In this document: positions 27,330 through 33,694 of the stretch, one piece after another
Layout: each line of letters begins with the position of its first letter
Position numbering within the stretch: the first letter of the stretch is position 1
Assembly (NCBI GenBank): GCA_016235455.1
Contig: JACRKZ010000136.1
Coordinates: 1 to 59,032 of the forward strand
DNA: 59,032 nucleotides
Direction: 5' to 3'
Source: Armatimonadota bacterium
GTDB taxonomy: Bacteria > Armatimonadota > UBA10988
Notes under the pieces: model-generated
Told to the model about the DNA's origin: nothing
What the model saw: only the letters and a program-made list of their open reading frames with translations
Database searches by the model: none
Program-made: the position numbers and the translations under genes

Positions 27330-29507
27330 TCAGCCGGCCGGCGTGCCCAAGGCCGCCCTGGCCGCCGCCACGTCGCCGGCGCCGTCGTCGCCCTGGCCGT
27401 CGATGTGGCCGATGCCGATCTCGCCGACCAGCGTCATGAACGCTGTGACGCAGCGCGGGTCGAATTGTAAACCGCTGTTCTTGAGGAGTTCTTCAAGCGC
27501 GACCCGCCGCGGCAGCGCCTGCCGGTAAGGTCGACTCGAGGTCATGGCGTCGTAGGTGTCGGCCACGCCGATGATGCGGGCCATGAGCGGGATGTCTTCT
27601 TCGTGCAGGCCATCGGGATAGCCAAACGAGCTGTACCGTTCGTGATGGTGGCGCATGCCGGGCAACAACCCGCGCAGCTGCTTGACCGGGTAGAGGATTT
27701 CGGCGGACTTGACCGGATGCGACTGCATGACGTGGAACTCGTCGTCGGTCAGCTTGCCCTGCTTGAGCAGGATGTCGTCGCGAATGCCGATCTTGCCCAC
27801 ATCGTGCAGCAGGCCGCAGTTGTAGAGCTTGTCGCACTCCTCTTCATCGAGCCCGAGCAGTTCGCCGATCATGCGCGACAGCCGCGCCACGCGCTCGCTG
27901 TGGCCACGCGTGTACGGGTCGCGCGCGTCGATGGCGTTGGCGATGACGCGGATCGAGTGGACGAACTGCTCCTCGAGATCGTCGTACAACTGCGCGTTCT
28001 CGATGGCGGCGGCGGCCTGCGCGGCCAGCGTGACGGCCAACTCGATCTGGTCCTCGCGGAAGTCGCCGCCCTGGTGCTCAGAGAGGTTGAGCACGCCGAT
28101 GACGCGTTCCTTGACGATCAGCGGCAGGCACAGGCTGGCGCTGCGCTGCGCCGACTGCGAGCCCTCGGCCACCTGGCCCTGGTTGAGCACGACCCGCTGG
28201 CCGCTGAGCGCCACGCCGCCGGCGATGCCTTCGCCCAGGCCGATGCGCGTGGACTCCACCACCTCGCGCGGCAGTCCGCGGGCCACGACGATGTGCAGGT
28301 GGCGCTCCGTATCCGGCGGCGTGCCGTCGTCGCGCGGGGTGGGGTCGAACTCGTCGCTCTCCGCCGGCTCGACGATCAGCATCAGCGAGCCCTTGTCGCA
28401 GCTGAGCAGCCGCAGTGCGCTGTCCAGGACCTGCGTGAGCAGTTCGTCGCGCTGTAGGGTGGTGGAAAGCGCCTGCCCGATGACATTGAGCGCGGCCAGC
28501 GCCTCGGCCCGCTGGCTCAGGCCGTCATACAGGCGCGCGTTGTGGATGGCCAGCGCGGCCTGCGTGCCCAGCGCCAGCAGCACCTCCTGGTCATGCGCGG
28601 AGAAGTTGCCGCCGTTGCTGCGCTCGGACACGTTGAGCACGCCGATGATGGTGCCCGACAGCGTCAGGGGGACACACAGCGCCGCGGGCAGCGCGCGGGC
28701 CTCGCTGTGGCTGTCGGCCACCCGCACGCCGGCGGCCAGCCGGCGCGGCTCGCCGCTGCGGGCCACTTCGCCGGCGATGCCTTCGCCCAGGCCGACGCGG
28801 GTGCTGGCGATGACCTCATCGCTCAGCCCATGGGCCACGGCGATGCTCAGCTGCGCGGTGGGCGCGTCGAGCAGCATTACCGAGCCCTTGTGGGCACCGA
28901 GCAGCTCAATGGCGCGGCTGAGCACGCGGCCCAGCGTCTCCTCGAGCGACAGGCTCTCGTTGACCGCCAGCGACACCTCATAGAGCGCGCGCAGCTCGGC
29001 GGCACGATGCTCCTGCTCCTGGTAGGCGCGGGCGTTGGTGATGGCCACGGCGCTCTGGGCGGCCAGCAGTTCGACCAGGCGCACATCGTCGTCGGCGAAG
29101 CTGTCCTGGCCGTCCGTGCGGTCCGACAGGTTGAGCACGCCGATGACCCGGCCATGGGCGGAGAGGGGCACGCAGACGGCGGCGGGCAGATGGACCACGC
29201 GGCCCTCGCGCTCGCGGCTGCCGGCGGCCAGCACGCGGGAACGACCGGACTCGGCGACACCGCCGGCGATGCCTTCGCCCAGGGGCACGCGGGTGTTGGC
29301 CACCACATCGTCCGCCAACCCGTGCGCCGCGGCGATGGTCAGCGCCGCGCCGGCCTCCTCCAGCAGCATAATGCTGCCGTGGCGCGCGGCGAGCAGCTCG
29401 CAGGCGCGGGTCAGAATCACGCCGAGGACCTGGTCGATATCGAGGGTGGAGCTGACCGCGACCGCCACCTCCCAGATCGCTTCGATACGTTGGGCTTCAG
29501 CGGACAT
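27330..29507 (-). CDS. Triple-GAF HD-GYP cyclic-dinucleotide phosphodiesterase
   Basis: Three GAF repeats (LGEGIAG.VA...VIGVLN); DPYTRGHSERV, LHDVGK, HHER...GYP, ADTYDAMTS.RPYR. Confidence 0.92.
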   Translation of the reverse strand: MSAEAQRIEAIWEVAVAVSSTLDIDQVLGVILTRACELLAARHGSIMLLEEAGAALTIAAAHGLADDVVANTRVPLGEGIAGGVAESGRSRVLAAGSREREGRVVHLPAAVCVPLSAHGRVIGVLNLSDRTDGQDSFADDDVRLVELLAAQSAVAITNARAYQEQEHRAAELRALYEVSLAVNESLSLEETLGRVLSRAIELLGAHKGSVMLLDAPTAQLSIAVAHGLSDEVIASTRVGLGEGIAGEVARSGEPRRLAAGVRVADSHSEARALPAALCVPLTLSGTIIGVLNVSERSNGGNFSAHDQEVLLALGTQAALAIHNARLYDGLSQRAEALAALNVIGQALSTTLQRDELLTQVLDSALRLLSCDKGSLMLIVEPAESDEFDPTPRDDGTPPDTERHLHIVVARGLPREVVESTRIGLGEGIAGGVALSGQRVVLNQGQVAEGSQSAQRSASLCLPLIVKERVIGVLNLSEHQGGDFREDQIELAVTLAAQAAAAIENAQLYDDLEEQFVHSIRVIANAIDARDPYTRGHSERVARLSRMIGELLGLDEEECDKLYNCGLLHDVGKIGIRDDILLKQGKLTDDEFHVMQSHPVKSAEILYPVKQLRGLLPGMRHHHERYSSFGYPDGLHEEDIPLMARIIGVADTYDAMTSSRPYRQALPRRVALEELLKNSGLQFDPRCVTAFMTLVGEIGIGHIDGQGDDGAGDVAAARAALGTPAG

Positions 29508-29526
29508 GAGCTTCCTTCGCGCGGCG

Positions 29527-29694
29527 TCAGTCGTCGAGGCGGATGGAGTTCTGGAACTCCGCGACGGTGTCCTTGAGCTTGCGCGACACCTTGGCGACGG
29601 TCTTGGCGACCTCGGGCAGCTTCTCGCCGAACAACAGCACCGCAACGAAGGCGATGAGGATCATCTCTTGCGGACCGACGCCCAGGAACTCCAC
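29527..29694 (-). CDS. tatA: Twin-arginine translocase TatA/TatB family subunit
   Basis: MEFLGVGPQEMILIAFVAVLLFGEKLPEVAK: TM helix, FG hinge and amphipathic helix. Confidence 0.8.
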   Translation of the reverse strand: MEFLGVGPQEMILIAFVAVLLFGEKLPEVAKTVAKVSRKLKDTVAEFQNSIRLDD

Positions 29695-29741
29695 GGCCGA
29701 CTCCCAGCAGGTGTCCGCGCAATGCCGGACTACCATCGATC

Positions 29742-29770
29742 AGTATATTCCTCAGCGGCCCCGCCAGCAA
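29742..29770 (-). promoter_or_regulatory. Putative sigma70-type promoter for tatA and the HD-GYP gene
   Basis: Minus strand reads TTGCTG-17 nt-TATACT. Confidence 0.5.
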
Positions 29771-29836
29771 TCACAAGGTGAAGTGGACGTGGGCCGTGGG
29801 TCGTGGGAAGCAACAGCGCGCCGACGCACGGCCTGG

Positions 29837-32176
29837 TCATCCGCACAGCACATGCAGCACACCCACGGCCCAACTGCCTGGCAGCGGGCGGCCGTCGCGC
29901 GCGTCCAGCGGATGCAGGGCGCTGGCCGGTGGCAGGCCGGCCTGATGCCAGATCTCGCCCAGCTCGGCCGGCGCGGGCTCGTAGCCTGGCGCGACGATGA
30001 TCCGCTGGCCCAGCGTCATGGCTGCCAGGCCGAGCGTGGCCTCGGTGCGGTCGGGCCCCGGCGTGCCAGGCAGCACCACGTCCAGCGAACGGCCATCGGG
30101 CAGGCGCGGGAGATCGGCGGCGACTGCGGCGATATCGCCCAGCAGACCGCGCCGGGTCCGCAGTCGGTCGCCCGCGCGCGGCCGAACGCGCGCCGCCAGC
30201 GTCAGCGCCACCTGCGTCACCGCGCCGCGCGCGTCCACCTGATCGCGCACGGCGGCCACCTGCCAGGCATCACCGGTCTCCGGCGCGTGCTGTGTGGCGT
30301 CGCCGTTGTTGTGGCGCCAGAGGCGGGCCACGAGCGGCTCCCCCGGCGCCACGACCGCGCCCACGCGCACCACGCCGCGCTGATCAAGCCAGCGCGGGTC
30401 ACGGACCGCCGAGCGGGTCAGGACATACTCGCCCGACACCGGGCAGAGCAGCGTCAGCCACTGGGTGTGCGATAGCAGTTCGGCCGCGACCAGACGGTCG
30501 GATACCACCAGGCCGCCTGGCCACTGGTCGCACCAGCCGACCAGCAGGTTGCGGCCCAGCGCCAGCTCGCCGTCAAGCACGCCCGGCCCGTCGGCCAGGG
30601 CATCGCCGCCAGACACCCGCTCGCCGACCTGAACGCGCGGTCGCCAACCGTGCGCGGGCAACGGCAGGTCGGCCTCGCCCAGGCGCAGTGTCGTGTCGGT
30701 CAGCGCCTCCACCAGGCCGTCGCGCGGCGCCGCGAGCCGGGCCGGCGCGGCCACCTCGCGTTCCAGCCCGGTGCCCACCCACGGCACCTGGCCCTGATCG
30801 AGTGGCAGCGTAAGCGCTGAAGCGAAGCCCGCACGCGCAATGGGCGGTGTGTCGGCCACCGGCTCGACATACGCGTCCAGATGGGGCTTCAGGCCCAGGG
30901 CGGCCGCCTCGTGGGCCTCCGCGTGCACCGTCGCCACCGCGTCGGCCAGTGCCAGCGGGTTCTCGCGGCTCACCGCGCGCGCCGTGGGGCCGCGCCGCAG
31001 CCAGTCCAGCCAGACGGCGCTCAAGCCCAGCCGTTCGACCAGGTCTTGCGCGTCGGCGTCGGTATCCAGCCCATCGGTGAGCTGGTCGAGCCGCTCGTTG
31101 TGCGTGCGGCGCGCCTGGTCGAGGAGCTGGCCAGCGGCGCGCTGCAGCCGGAAGCCGTCGCCCACCGCCACCGTGCGGGTCGTGGCCACCACCTCGCGGC
31201 CGTCGACGATGAAGGTGCCGCGCTCCGTGAGCCAGGGCAGCGAGGCCCAGCGCAGCCGGCGTCGCGTGACCGGCTGGCCGCGCTCACCGTGCAGTTCCAC
31301 GCCGACCAGCACCTCGCCCAGCCAGGTGCGCCCGGCGATGGCCGCCACCGACCAGGGCTCGGGCGGCGGCACCACGGCCAGTCCGGCGAAGGCCAGCCGC
31401 CGCCGGCCGGAAGGCCCGTCCAGCGGGAAGCGGCGCGCGATCTCGCTGCTCAGTGCCTCGCCGATCAGCTCCTCGAAAGCGGCCCGCCCGCCGGCCAGCC
31501 AGTCGACGGCGCGTGGCACGCGTCCCAGCGTCAACGGCACGCCCGGTGGTGGCTTCGTCGGCGCGGGCGGCACGGCGCGCGTGGTCAGGCGTTCGGCCAG
31601 ATCGCGCTGGTCGGCCGGCAGCAGCTCGGTCGCGCGGCGCAGCAGCAGCGCGGGGCTCATCTGGTCGTCGGTGGTCAGGTCCAGCAGCAGGTGCTCGTCG
31701 GCCCAGTCGACCCGCGCGGCCACCAGCGGCGTGAAGCGCACGGGCAGGGGCATGTAGCTGCCCTGGCCCAGGCCGATGGCGCCGCGTTGGCCGTGGCCGA
31801 CCTCGACCACCAGCGTCACCTCCAGGGCGCCGCGCGGCCCCACGCGGACGATCTCCAGGTCGGGGTTGGACACATCGAGTCCGGTGGCCAGGGCGATGTC
31901 CGCGCCGGTCACCGTCTGCGGGCCGCCGAAGGCGCACGTCTCCGAGCGCGCCGGCCCGTGGTGGCGCACGCTCAACCGACCTAACCGCCGGGCGATCTGG
32001 GTCAGCGTCAGCGGCAGGTCGTCGAGTCGAGTGTGCGCGGTCGGCGCCGGGCCGAAGCTGACACTGGTGACAGCGGCGCCCTCGACCTCACGCTCGGCGG
32101 CGCGCAGCAGCAGGCAGGCCAGGCGCCGGCCGGCGGCCTGGTCGATCGGCCCGAGGGATAAACGCTCAGTCGCCAC
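29837..32176 (-). CDS. Degenerate RNA polymerase alpha-NTD / mini-beta fusion protein (RpoA-RpoB-like, predicted non-catalytic)
   Basis: aa 1-186 are collinear with the RpoA NTD (GAAVTSV, GPQTVTGADI, NPDLEI, FTP, TDDQMSP). aa ~215-779 are collinear with RpoB blocks (LPWLTERGTFIVDG, ENPLA, VGTGLE, LADGP...GELALGRNLLV, LDQRGVVRVGA.V.PG, LP.LPDG..LDVVL, DARDG.P). Confidence 0.85.
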   Translation of the reverse strand: MATERLSLGPIDQAAGRRLACLLLRAAEREVEGAAVTSVSFGPAPTAHTRLDDLPLTLTQIARRLGRLSVRHHGPARSETCAFGGPQTVTGADIALATGLDVSNPDLEIVRVGPRGALEVTLVVEVGHGQRGAIGLGQGSYMPLPVRFTPLVAARVDWADEHLLLDLTTDDQMSPALLLRRATELLPADQRDLAERLTTRAVPPAPTKPPPGVPLTLGRVPRAVDWLAGGRAAFEELIGEALSSEIARRFPLDGPSGRRRLAFAGLAVVPPPEPWSVAAIAGRTWLGEVLVGVELHGERGQPVTRRRLRWASLPWLTERGTFIVDGREVVATTRTVAVGDGFRLQRAAGQLLDQARRTHNERLDQLTDGLDTDADAQDLVERLGLSAVWLDWLRRGPTARAVSRENPLALADAVATVHAEAHEAAALGLKPHLDAYVEPVADTPPIARAGFASALTLPLDQGQVPWVGTGLEREVAAPARLAAPRDGLVEALTDTTLRLGEADLPLPAHGWRPRVQVGERVSGGDALADGPGVLDGELALGRNLLVGWCDQWPGGLVVSDRLVAAELLSHTQWLTLLCPVSGEYVLTRSAVRDPRWLDQRGVVRVGAVVAPGEPLVARLWRHNNGDATQHAPETGDAWQVAAVRDQVDARGAVTQVALTLAARVRPRAGDRLRTRRGLLGDIAAVAADLPRLPDGRSLDVVLPGTPGPDRTEATLGLAAMTLGQRIIVAPGYEPAPAELGEIWHQAGLPPASALHPLDARDGRPLPGSWAVGVLHVLCG

Positions 32177-32233
32177 GGAAGGTACTTCCTCGCAGGTTCA
32201 AGAACTGCGCACCCAACTGCGCGGAGCATTCGC

Positions 32234-33694
32234 ATGACCATTCGCCACTCCTGCCGCTCGTGGCCGACGCTCTGCCTGCTGGCCGCGGCGCTCTCGGCCG
32301 GCGCCGCCGGCGCGGTCGACAAGCCCTGGCAACTGGTCGGCCTGCCAGCGGGCGGCTGGGCCGACCTGGGTGTCGTCGTGGGCGGTCTGACCATCGTCCG
32401 CGCGCAGGTCAGCCCCGAGCCGGCCGGCGCCAGCCTGGTGGTCGAGGTGCGGGCGCGCCACGCCGAGCCCACGCGGTTTGCCGTGTCGGCCTTCGATGAG
32501 CGCCGTCAGCCGCTGGGCGCCGGCTGCGACACGGTCGCCGTGCCGGGCGCCGGGGCGCCCTTGGCCAGCCGCGAGACGCTGACCAGCCTGCGCCTGCCGC
32601 TGGGTGCGGTCGATCCCGCCGCGGTGCGTTACCTGGCCGCCGGACCGGTGGCTGTGGCCGCGCCGCGCGACACCAGCCTGTGCGCCGCGGCGCGCGGTGG
32701 CCGCGTCAGCGCAACGTCGTCGAGCTACGGATCGAGCTTCGACGAGCAGCGCATCCTCGACGGTCTGCCCAACACCTTCTACGCCTCGAAGACCGGCCTA
32801 ATCACCAACCAGTGGCTGATGATCGACCTGCCCGGCGACGAGCCACTGGAGATAGCTGAGATTGGCATCGACGGGCATGGCGAGCCCAACGACCCCAAGT
32901 CGGCGCTGCGCCACTTCGCCGTGCTGGCCTCGGAAGGCGGCACCGCCGAGGCCGACTTCCACGAGGTGCTGCGCGACGAATGTGCGTTCGACGCCGGCCT
33001 CCAGCGCTGGCCGATCAAGCCTGTCCAGGCCCGCTGGATCAAGCTGCTCTGCCTGGACAACTGGGGCAGCACGCAGTGGGTGGAACTGGCCTCGTTCGAG
33101 TGCTACGCGCCGTCTGGGCCGCCGACCCCGCGCCCCGAACTGGTGCAGTCGCTGGCCGACTTCCCAGCGCCGGCGGCGCCGCCGTTGGCCGACAGCGATG
33201 GGCCTGTGTTCCTGCTCCGGTACATCGTGCCGACGGACCCAGCGCCGGCCCAGCCCGCCTGGCGCGTGGCGCTGGACGGCTGCCGCGAGGGTAGCGCGCG
33301 GGTCGTACACTGCGACAGCGACGGCGCCACCTTCGCCGCGCTCCGACTCGACTTCGCCTTTGGCAACCTGCTGGGCGGAGCGCCGCAGAGCTGCGCCGCG
33401 CTGTTCGACACGGCCTTCACCGGTGCGGCGCGGCGGGTGCAGGTCACCTACCGCACCGACCGGCCCGGCAACAGCCTGCGACTGGCCTGTGCCGGGCCGG
33501 ATGGGTCGCTGGTCTGGCGCGATGTGGCCCGACCGACCGATCGGGCCTGGCACGTGGGCAGCGTTGCCGTGGACGACACGCTGGGCCTGGGCTCACGCTT
33601 CGCGCGACTGGCGGTGGTGCCGCGCGGCCGCGACAACCTTACCGGCAGCCTGTGGGTGGCGCAGGCGCTGGCGCTCTACGCGCCGGCGCCGTAG
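32234..33694 (+). CDS. Secreted protein with discoidin (F5/8 type C)-like domain
   Basis: Signal peptide; ILDG...., QWLMIDL, ARWIKL..LDNWG..WVELASFE. Confidence 0.72.
   Translation: MTIRHSCRSWPTLCLLAAALSAGAAGAVDKPWQLVGLPAGGWADLGVVVGGLTIVRAQVSPEPAGASLVVEVRARHAEPTRFAVSAFDERRQPLGAGCDTVAVPGAGAPLASRETLTSLRLPLGAVDPAAVRYLAAGPVAVAAPRDTSLCAAARGGRVSATSSSYGSSFDEQRILDGLPNTFYASKTGLITNQWLMIDLPGDEPLEIAEIGIDGHGEPNDPKSALRHFAVLASEGGTAEADFHEVLRDECAFDAGLQRWPIKPVQARWIKLLCLDNWGSTQWVELASFECYAPSGPPTPRPELVQSLADFPAPAAPPLADSDGPVFLLRYIVPTDPAPAQPAWRVALDGCREGSARVVHCDSDGATFAALRLDFAFGNLLGGAPQSCAALFDTAFTGAARRVQVTYRTDRPGNSLRLACAGPDGSLVWRDVARPTDRAWHVGSVAVDDTLGLGSRFARLAVVPRGRDNLTGSLWVAQALALYAPAP

Follow-up and report, generated by a model that had tools for sequence, protein, structure and literature searches.

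The window, a stretch of 59,032 nucleotides from an Armatimonadota bacterium (GenBank assembly GCA_016235455.1, contig JACRKZ010000136.1), contains at positions 29837..32176 of the (−) strand an open reading frame (ORF), here called P0001, which joins an RpoA N-terminal domain (NTD)-like domain to a reduced, motif-less RpoB-like body in a single chain of 779 codons plus stop. The core RNA polymerase (RNAP) of bacteria is usually α2ββ′ω, with one gene for each subunit. P0001 is, very probably, a selected, non-catalytic α–β pseudo-subunit. The frame has a GTG start and no internal stop; it extends only some seven codons further upstream (786 amino acids, aa), and P0160, the closest full-length relative, begins at the same point with Met. 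An initial annotation of the window, made from the sequence alone, had described an uninterrupted 779-aa ORF here, and its coordinates, strand and frame are borne out by translation. The placing of residues 1–186 at 32176–31619 is likewise correct, and every peptide block that was quoted occurs in the translation in the order given.

P0001 is homologous to both the RpoA NTD and RpoB. The NCBIfam rpoB models PRK00405 (E 3.4e-23, 81.4 bits, cut-off 896) and TIGR02013 (E 3.4e-21, 74.7 bits, cut-off 801) both match, as does the rpoA model TIGR02027 (E 4.7e-8, 32.6 bits, cut-off 227.8), which aligns residues 5–186 with positions 3–200 of its 298. A phmmer search of the PDB chains returned 70 distinct sequences at E ≤ 0.01, and all 60 of the 60 listed are RNAP β or α; the best are the β chain 8i23_C (6.8e-20) and the α chain 7vpd_A (1.4e-8). 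Three collinear stretches are observed between P0001 and 8i23_C: residues 232–353 with 33–158, 457–620 with 670–861 and 655–777 with 922–1052. The RpoA-NTD similarity read from the sequence in the initial annotation is thus supported by TIGR02027 and the PDB α chain, and the RpoB blocks in native order by the rpoB profiles and the collinear β alignment. The profile comparison proposed there gives significant matches with the NCBIfam rpoA and rpoB models; with Pfam alone, PF00562 (20.5 against 23.4 bits) and PF01000 (19.3 against 33.9 bits) both score under their curated cut-offs. By Pfam the α sub-domains are seen as PF01000 in P0001 (E 1.4e-3) and as PF01193 (9.3e-5) and PF01000 (9.4e-4) in its ortholog P0004.

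An AlphaFold2 model built from a 25-row alignment has a mean predicted local distance difference test (pLDDT) value of 85.4 and a predicted template modelling score of 0.82 over the 779 residues; P0001 is thereby predicted to be a confident single-chain fold. The sole stretch with pLDDT below 50 comprises residues 430–454. The α-like module is modelled with pLDDT mostly of 82–97 and includes helices at 13–30 and 175–194, which we take to be the helix pair used by α to dimerise. An invariant arginine of the family, Arg-25, corresponds in the alignment to the second Arg in the ALRR block of α; we assume this to be the residue that aligns with Arg-45 of E. coli α. When the model was compared with the PDB using Foldseek, the best 50 matches listed were all RNAP β chains (E 1.5e-32 to 1.3e-28, TMq 0.54–0.61), so that the structure prediction suggested in the initial annotation does return a match to RNAP β. 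Among viral models (BFVD) Foldseek detects a resemblance to Rpb2-type and, separately, to Rpb3-type (α-like) proteins, more weakly than in the PDB. Comparison with a protein atlas gave a best cosine of 0.79, under the usable level.

All modules lie on the (−) strand. The α NTD-like module (aa 1–195, 31592..32176) comprises the dimerisation part and the insert domain without the α C-terminal domain (CTD), and is delimited by TIGR02027, the PDB matches and the model. It is joined to the β-like part by a Pro-rich linker, TRAVPPAPTKPPPGVPLTLG (aa 196–227, 31496..31591), recognised from the sequence, in which pLDDT dips to 58–81. The β N-terminal (protrusion-type) blocks FPLDGPSGRRRL and LPWLTERGTFIVDG follow (aa 228–345, 31142..31495), aligned to residues 33–158 of 8i23_C; here the identity of P0001 to P0160 is 81%, and to P0004 it is 57%. 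The next region (aa 346–464, 30785..31141), assigned by motif search and from the model, consists of a helical segment with the RLQRAAGQLLD block, a remnant of the fork domain (NPLA) and the low-confidence stretch, in which ETPEG and ANMQRQ would be expected and neither was found by motif search. It is the least conserved region in the family (21–39%). The central β body (aa 465–779, 29840..30784) carries PWVGTGLE, GELALGRNLLV, LDQRGVVRVG and LPRLPDGRSLDVVL and is covered by the hidden Markov model stretches 455–625 and 650–777 and by the Foldseek matches. Within it, the degenerate β catalytic loop GDRLRTRRGLLG (aa 669–680, 30137..30172) was located by alignment to 8i23_C and 1i6v_C and by comparison within the family. 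Conservation in the family spans both modules, with its minimum in the linker and in the 429–464 stretch. A few bases past the stop a terminator-like hairpin (29817..29830, −) was picked out by a consensus scan only, which gave 3 sites against 0.4 expected in shuffles.

A search for the motifs of RpoB found ETPEG, ANMQRQ, NFED, the lysines of GDKxxxRHGNKG and HLVDDK to be missing from all five of the family members that were compared. In the catalytic loop of P0001 the first Lys is replaced by Arg and the second by Leu. No β lobe separates the GTFIVDG and RLQRxxGQLL blocks, PF04561 (lobe) gives no match, and the flap tip is absent, a short WRHNNGD link standing in its place. The chain terminates at VGVLHVLCG, at the residue aligned directly ahead of the HLVDDK block; therefore the whole C-terminal clamp/anchor module (Pfam Rpb2_7, PF04560) is missing, and PF04560 gives no match. 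In RpoB this module holds β′. The α CTD (PF03118) is not among the Pfam matches of P0001, in which the sequence from residue 196 onward is linker and β-like, and neither a β′-type region nor NADFDGD was found in the NCBIfam scan and the motif search. The β-like part amounts to about 570 residues as against 1100–1450 in RpoB. With these motifs and the C-terminal module lost, P0001 is, judged from its sequence, not a working catalytic subunit and could not take the place of a normal one.

The initial annotation had pointed to the α/β junction (near 31530–31620) as a possible site of mis-assembly. A contig from run X2 (26,423 nucleotides) spans 29700–32300 whole, with 11 differing letters and without gaps; it possibly comes from the sample behind the window and so is not independent. 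Contigs from a second study also cross the junction (X5 at 31323–31663 and X6 at 31475–31645). The same two-module architecture is shared by proteins assembled elsewhere, namely P0160 with 780 aa, P0004 with 798 aa and P0010/P0024 with 734 aa, so the search among relatives that had been suggested does return the same fusion. The P0001 fusion is not an assembly artefact.

Variants were taken from contigs of four runs in two studies. Within the ORF 33 differences are listed, 26 synonymous and seven non-synonymous. Set against 673 sites of the synonymous and 1664 of the non-synonymous kind, they correspond to a ratio of non-synonymous to synonymous polymorphism per site (pN/pS) close to 0.11 (binomial p 4e-9); six more differences in the 2.6-kb stretch lie outside these 33. 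Some variant rows rest on one contig at a depth below 5, and four of the seven non-synonymous changes occur as two pairs, each within one codon, in a single X6 contig of low depth, about 87% alike, which may derive from a related organism. Two of the seven fall in codons 204 and 205 of the Pro-rich linker. The only indel listed, in one contig of the freshwater run X6, adds three nucleotides (ACG) after position 30338 and is thus an in-frame length variant. At greater distance, orthologs of 734–798 aa with 30–73% identity to P0001 have intact frames, and three end at the same residue; those with DNA are 30–47% identical, a distance at which synonymous sites are saturated. P0001 is under purifying selection and is not decaying, and the decaying relic that the initial annotation had named as the alternative is disfavoured by the pN/pS value and by these intact orthologs.

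The host genome encodes a canonical RNAP elsewhere, as the initial annotation had wished to see confirmed. Contig C159 carries both rpoB (1521.5 bits summed over the frame) and rpoC (1574.5 bits, likewise summed), and contig C55 carries rpoA (338.8 bits); all three score far above the curated cut-offs. The description of P0001 as a stand-alone α–β pseudo-subunit holds in so far as it is a single chain, lies apart from the canonical genes and lacks their motifs. A profile of the β′ parts of nine fused polymerases, run against the six-frame ORFs of the genome (42,333 in number), gave two matches, rpoC and a mini polymerase, P0002; it thus detected no dedicated β′-like partner of P0001.

The family is very narrow and lies within Armatimonadota; the communities that carry P0001 are those of groundwater and freshwater. 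Out of 1.84 billion representatives searched, 717 match P0001 at E ≤ 1e-3, but just four reach E ≤ 1e-30, namely three family members and a triple fusion, P0013. The members of the family are P0011/P0160, P0004 and P0024, together with a short form of 331–334 aa (the P0012 cluster). Identity to P0001 is 72–73% for P0160, 48% for P0004, 29–31% for P0010/P0024 and 46% for L038, an incomplete gene from a metagenome contig. The P0012 cluster has four members, on contigs of 7–17 kb, one of them source-labelled Armatimonadota. We note that the short form (P0012, P0162, P0163) consists of the α-like domain, the Pro-rich linker and one β-derived piece (LDGRGVARVG...WQVAAV), which aligns to residues 597–665 of P0001; it may represent the smallest unit that functions, or else a copy that has decayed. 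As the short forms keep it, the α-like domain is the family's constant module.

Within 401 Armatimonadota genomes three passed E ≤ 1e-14. The gene is carried by the host (G000) and by G005, whose locus (L035) is recorded as from an uncultured Fimbriimonadaceae bacterium; the third match is a canonical rpoB frame of 1420 aa. In G001, of the same genus as G000, the first 78 codons of an ortholog are found at a contig end, directly after an aldo-keto reductase gene. This partial ortholog is syntenic, because an aldo-keto reductase gene also neighbours the locus in the window; it is 47% identical to P0001 over its 78 residues, as against 59–85% for the flanking genes. A related-locus search with a three-row alignment returned, besides L035 and L038, matches of low identity in the β part only (L036, L037, L039). 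L039 was rejected as a family locus, being a canonical rpoB–rpoC pair, as was G004 C117:1–2492 (L023), a canonical-type rpoB fragment with all motifs. G004 already has rpoB on contig C79, and the 2.5-kb C117 is a second rpoB or bin contamination.

The initial annotation considered α–β to lie outside the known natural fusions. This does not hold for metagenome proteins, where at least seven of the best 150 representative matches to P0001 are α–β or α–β–β′ single chains. The α–β–β′ chains are P0013 (1948 aa), P0014 (1966 aa), P0015 (2309 aa) and P0043 (2241 aa), and the α–β chains are P0034 (1005 aa, with a complete compact β), P0101 and P0022. By Pfam the order in P0013, P0014 and P0015 is RNA_pol_L, RNA_pol_A_bac, then β, then β′; the α-like N-termini of P0022 and P0043 were found by phmmer with the first 200 residues of P0001. 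P0013, P0014 and P0015 are the top-scoring matches to P0001 from outside its family (E 4e-32 to 5e-24). Both lysines of the catalytic loop are kept in five of the seven fused polymerases. GDKxxxRHGNKG is kept in P0034, P0013, P0015 and P0043, which retain three to five of the motifs searched, and NADFDGD in P0013, P0015 and P0043.

No α–β fusion was found in the viral contigs searched, in which P0013 and P0034 gave matches to the β part only, starting near residue 213. None of 41 phage records matched by P0034 covers 80% or more of it or joins an α part to a β part, and plasmid records yielded pieces of canonical rpoB and no α–β fusion. In 151 Armatimonadota genomes every α-insert-domain match listed lies in a frame of 274–461 aa and is an ordinary rpoA, with no fusion among the matches listed. 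A literature search, with subscription journals mostly outside its reach, gave no description of α–β fusions or of a dead β paralog.

In trees of the α part and of the β part the P0001 family forms one long, fully supported branch. In the β tree this branch is placed outside a starred clade that unites all but one of the 14 canonical RpoB rows and includes the RpoB of the host; P0101 was omitted from this tree as its C-terminus looks frameshifted. The trees are compatible with an origin of the branch from fused polymerases as well as with duplication in the host.

Compared with the RpoA NTD (TIGR02027; RNA_pol_L and RNA_pol_A_bac), P0001 shares both sub-domains and the predicted dimerisation helices but lacks the CTD, is fused to a β-like body, lies outside the ribosomal-protein operon and scores 32.6 rather than 227.8 bits. 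It shares block order and β-chain fold with RpoB (TIGR02013/PRK00405), yet is without lobe, fork motif, flap tip, catalytic residues and clamp module (74.7–81.4 against 801–896 bits). With the metagenomic α–β(–β′) chains it has in common the order of modules, α NTD then β, and differs from them in being motif-less and without β′ in cis or downstream. The known two-barrel single-chain RNAPs (YonO-like, crAss-like) have two double-psi barrels and a DxDGD loop that binds Mg; in contrast, P0001 is without a β′-type region and without NADFDGD. Table 1 of one survey (PMC2919709) holds only β::β′ (Helicobacter) and Rpb2::Rpb1 (yeast killer plasmids) as core-subunit fusions. These are, like P0001, natural covalent fusions of RNAP core subunits; they join two catalytic subunits and are active, whereas P0001 joins α to β and is predicted to be inactive. 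The two rpoB paralogs of Nonomuraea are reported to give a second form of RNAP (PMC5431353), and the two rpoA of Francisella are reported to be both RNAP subunits (PMC3294249). Such duplicates resemble P0001 as extra core-subunit copies beside the canonical set; P0001 differs from them in being truncated, fused and motif-less.

RNAP assembles in the order α2, then α2β, after which β′ joins. Because α-I and β assemble first, a covalent α–β chain without clamp module and catalytic residues resembles a frozen assembly intermediate. P0001 would be a pre-assembled look-alike of the α-I/β half of core RNAP that works without chemistry. Action through the host RNAP subunits, by pairing with α and by modulating or sequestering assembly partners, is a plausible if not quite probable mode. 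Since the α-like domain keeps the dimerisation helix pair and the Arg, it could pair with free host α and present the β-like surface of P0001, and this exposed surface would perhaps occupy β′. An active enzyme could not be completed around such a chain, from which clamp module and catalytic residues are gone, and the result would be RNAP assembly damped or buffered through sequestered or modulated partners (α, perhaps β′). More tentative, and on balance doubtful, is the specific proposal that P0001 is a dedicated, lysine-poor ‘half-polymerase’, long retained in a single small branch of Armatimonadota, that sets the amount of active RNAP assembled, or shields RNAP, by occupying α and/or β′. A complex prediction of P0001 1–205 with host RpoA 1–240, run without controls, scored 0.00 and weighs neither for nor against such a pairing.

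Several points weigh against a role in RNAP assembly. Binding to β′ may be weak without the C-terminal module. The α-like domain is very diverged (the long starred branch; Pfam scores under cut-off) and its dimer interface may be changed. The family occurs in just two of the 401 genomes of the phylum, so that the role of P0001 is dispensable for most relatives. No conserved gene neighbourhood that would name a partner is seen across G000, G001, G005 and L038.

The alternative that survives best, although we regard it as rather unlikely, is an exapted scaffold, in which the RNAP fold is kept and P0001 binds something unrelated to host RNAP, such as nucleic acid or another protein complex. It would account for the loss of all active-centre and sigma-contact elements, for neighbours that differ in every genome and for an unusual composition (2 Lys in 779 residues), and it fits a restricted, fast-evolving family with long branches in both trees. 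The modules retained are, however, the pair that are in mutual contact in core RNAP, as is generally known, and it is the α-like domain that stays constant across the family. The net charge of −10 and isoelectric point of 6.0 also speak against a general nucleic-acid binder.

An improbable alternative, raised in the initial annotation, is a decoy, a stand-in for the α/β surface that absorbs phage proteins or toxins which target RNAP. P0001 is a catalytically inactive version of something that phages commonly target, its distribution is patchy, the same-genus ortholog has diverged more than its flanking genes (47% identity over 78 residues against 59–85%), and the near lack of lysine could, speculatively, dodge lysine-directed modification. 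Variation in the population is strongly conservative, however, with no sign of diversifying selection at a pN/pS of 0.11. The neighbours are housekeeping genes; no PADLOC family is matched and no tRNA is found in the window, and the neighbours scanned have no defence or mobile-element match.

It is quite improbable that P0001 is an accessory subunit of P0002, which has a reduced β part and no α. P0002 is a β–β′ single chain of 988 aa on contig C40 of the same genome (54658–57621, +; L011:8659–11625), with a reduced β part in which SNRHGQKG is intact followed by a reduced β′ part with intact NADFDGD. It sits in a tight same-strand run of ORFs (682, 202, 164 and 215 aa) without Pfam or PADLOC matches; for the 202-aa ORF upstream of it the Pfam scan gave no family at E ≤ 0.1. 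Homologs of 39–67% identity are present in G002, G003, G017, G035, G036 and G038. An association of P0001 with P0002 is favoured by their presence in one genome and by P0002 being the only β′-like sequence there besides rpoC. Against this, the two genes lie on different contigs and their homologs do not travel together: G005 (95% complete) has a P0001 homolog and its best P0002 match is the canonical rpoB frame, while G002 (93% complete) and G003 (72%) have P0002 homologs and no P0001 homolog was found in them with P0001 as query. G017, G035, G036 and G038 have P0002 homologs and are likewise without the P0001 family.

We consider it very unlikely that P0001 is a decaying, functionless relic of an active α–β(–β′) fused polymerase or of duplicated rpoA/rpoB. 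Motif loss, truncation, the existence of shorter forms (734 aa; 331–334 aa) and the rarity of the family would agree with decay. The pattern of variation (26 of the 33 listed differences synonymous, the only indel in frame), frames intact at 30–73% identity with a common end point in three lineages, and a confident AlphaFold2 fold argue otherwise. No β′ remnant is found in the 191 bases between P0001 and the next ORF downstream, nor any extra β′-like ORF in the genome besides P0002. Least credible of all is a working alternative β that forms active RNAP with host β′, comparable to the duplicated rpoB of some actinomycetes, for which the retained β fold and the conservative replacement of the first catalytic Lys by Arg could be cited, but ETPEG, ANMQRQ, NFED, the second Lys, HLVDDK, the C-terminal module, lobe and flap tip are missing and the scores are 10-fold under the rpoB cut-offs.

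If the finding holds, P0001, as a selected, inactive α–β chain, would be a natural pseudo-enzyme of the transcription machine that could serve as a tool for studying the α2β assembly step, and α can be tethered covalently to β in nature. The relatives of P0001 suggest that in uncultured organisms whole α–β–β′ polymerases occur as one polypeptide, which is relevant to minimal transcription systems. On the more doubtful half-polymerase reading, P0001 would be the first pseudo-subunit of bacterial RNAP to be found in nature, and would point to an undescribed clade of such single-chain polymerases as its possible source. P0001 is of real interest for transcription specialists, with the mechanism a proposal.

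The neighbours of P0001 differ among the orthologs, and it is therefore a stand-alone chromosomal gene. The next ORF downstream, on the same strand and past the hairpin, encodes a 771-aa protein (27330–29645, −) in which three GAF domains are combined with an HD domain of the HD-GYP type, a signalling protein resembling cyclic di-GMP phosphodiesterases. Further downstream are an M48 peptidase with TPR repeats, peptidyl-prolyl isomerases, adenylosuccinate lyase and an enolase-superfamily enzyme. A scan of PADLOC-DB v2 at E ≤ 0.01 matched 0 families, no mobile-element or defence family was matched among the neighbouring ORFs scanned, and a search of the window for tRNA was negative. The ORF abutting the G005 ortholog was rejected as a partner gene as its G000 homolog is on another contig, and the ORFs downstream of L038 were rejected as they are unrelated to the neighbours in the window. 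On the other side of P0001, between it and the aldo-keto reductase gene, lies a 486-aa F5/8 type C (discoidin) ORF (32234–33694, +), whose start and that of P0001, on opposite strands, are 57 bases apart. As the aldo-keto reductase gene and the P0001 ortholog are adjacent in G001, this ORF was either inserted in the window or lost in G001.

The P0001 gene is the G+C peak of the window (0.756 at 30001–32000, compared with 0.62–0.725 in the other 2-kb bins). G+C at codon positions 1, 2 and 3 is 0.82, 0.55 and 0.895, as is usual for genes in a genome rich in G+C. Lysine is nearly absent from P0001, which has 80 Arg beside its 2 Lys, giving a lysine share that ranks 18th from the bottom among the 1763 long ORFs which a crude frame filter leaves in the genome (median 2.1%). 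P0160 has no Lys in 780 residues, while the host's own RpoB has 60 in 1452. This scarcity of lysine may reflect G+C drift or avoidance of lysine-directed modification.

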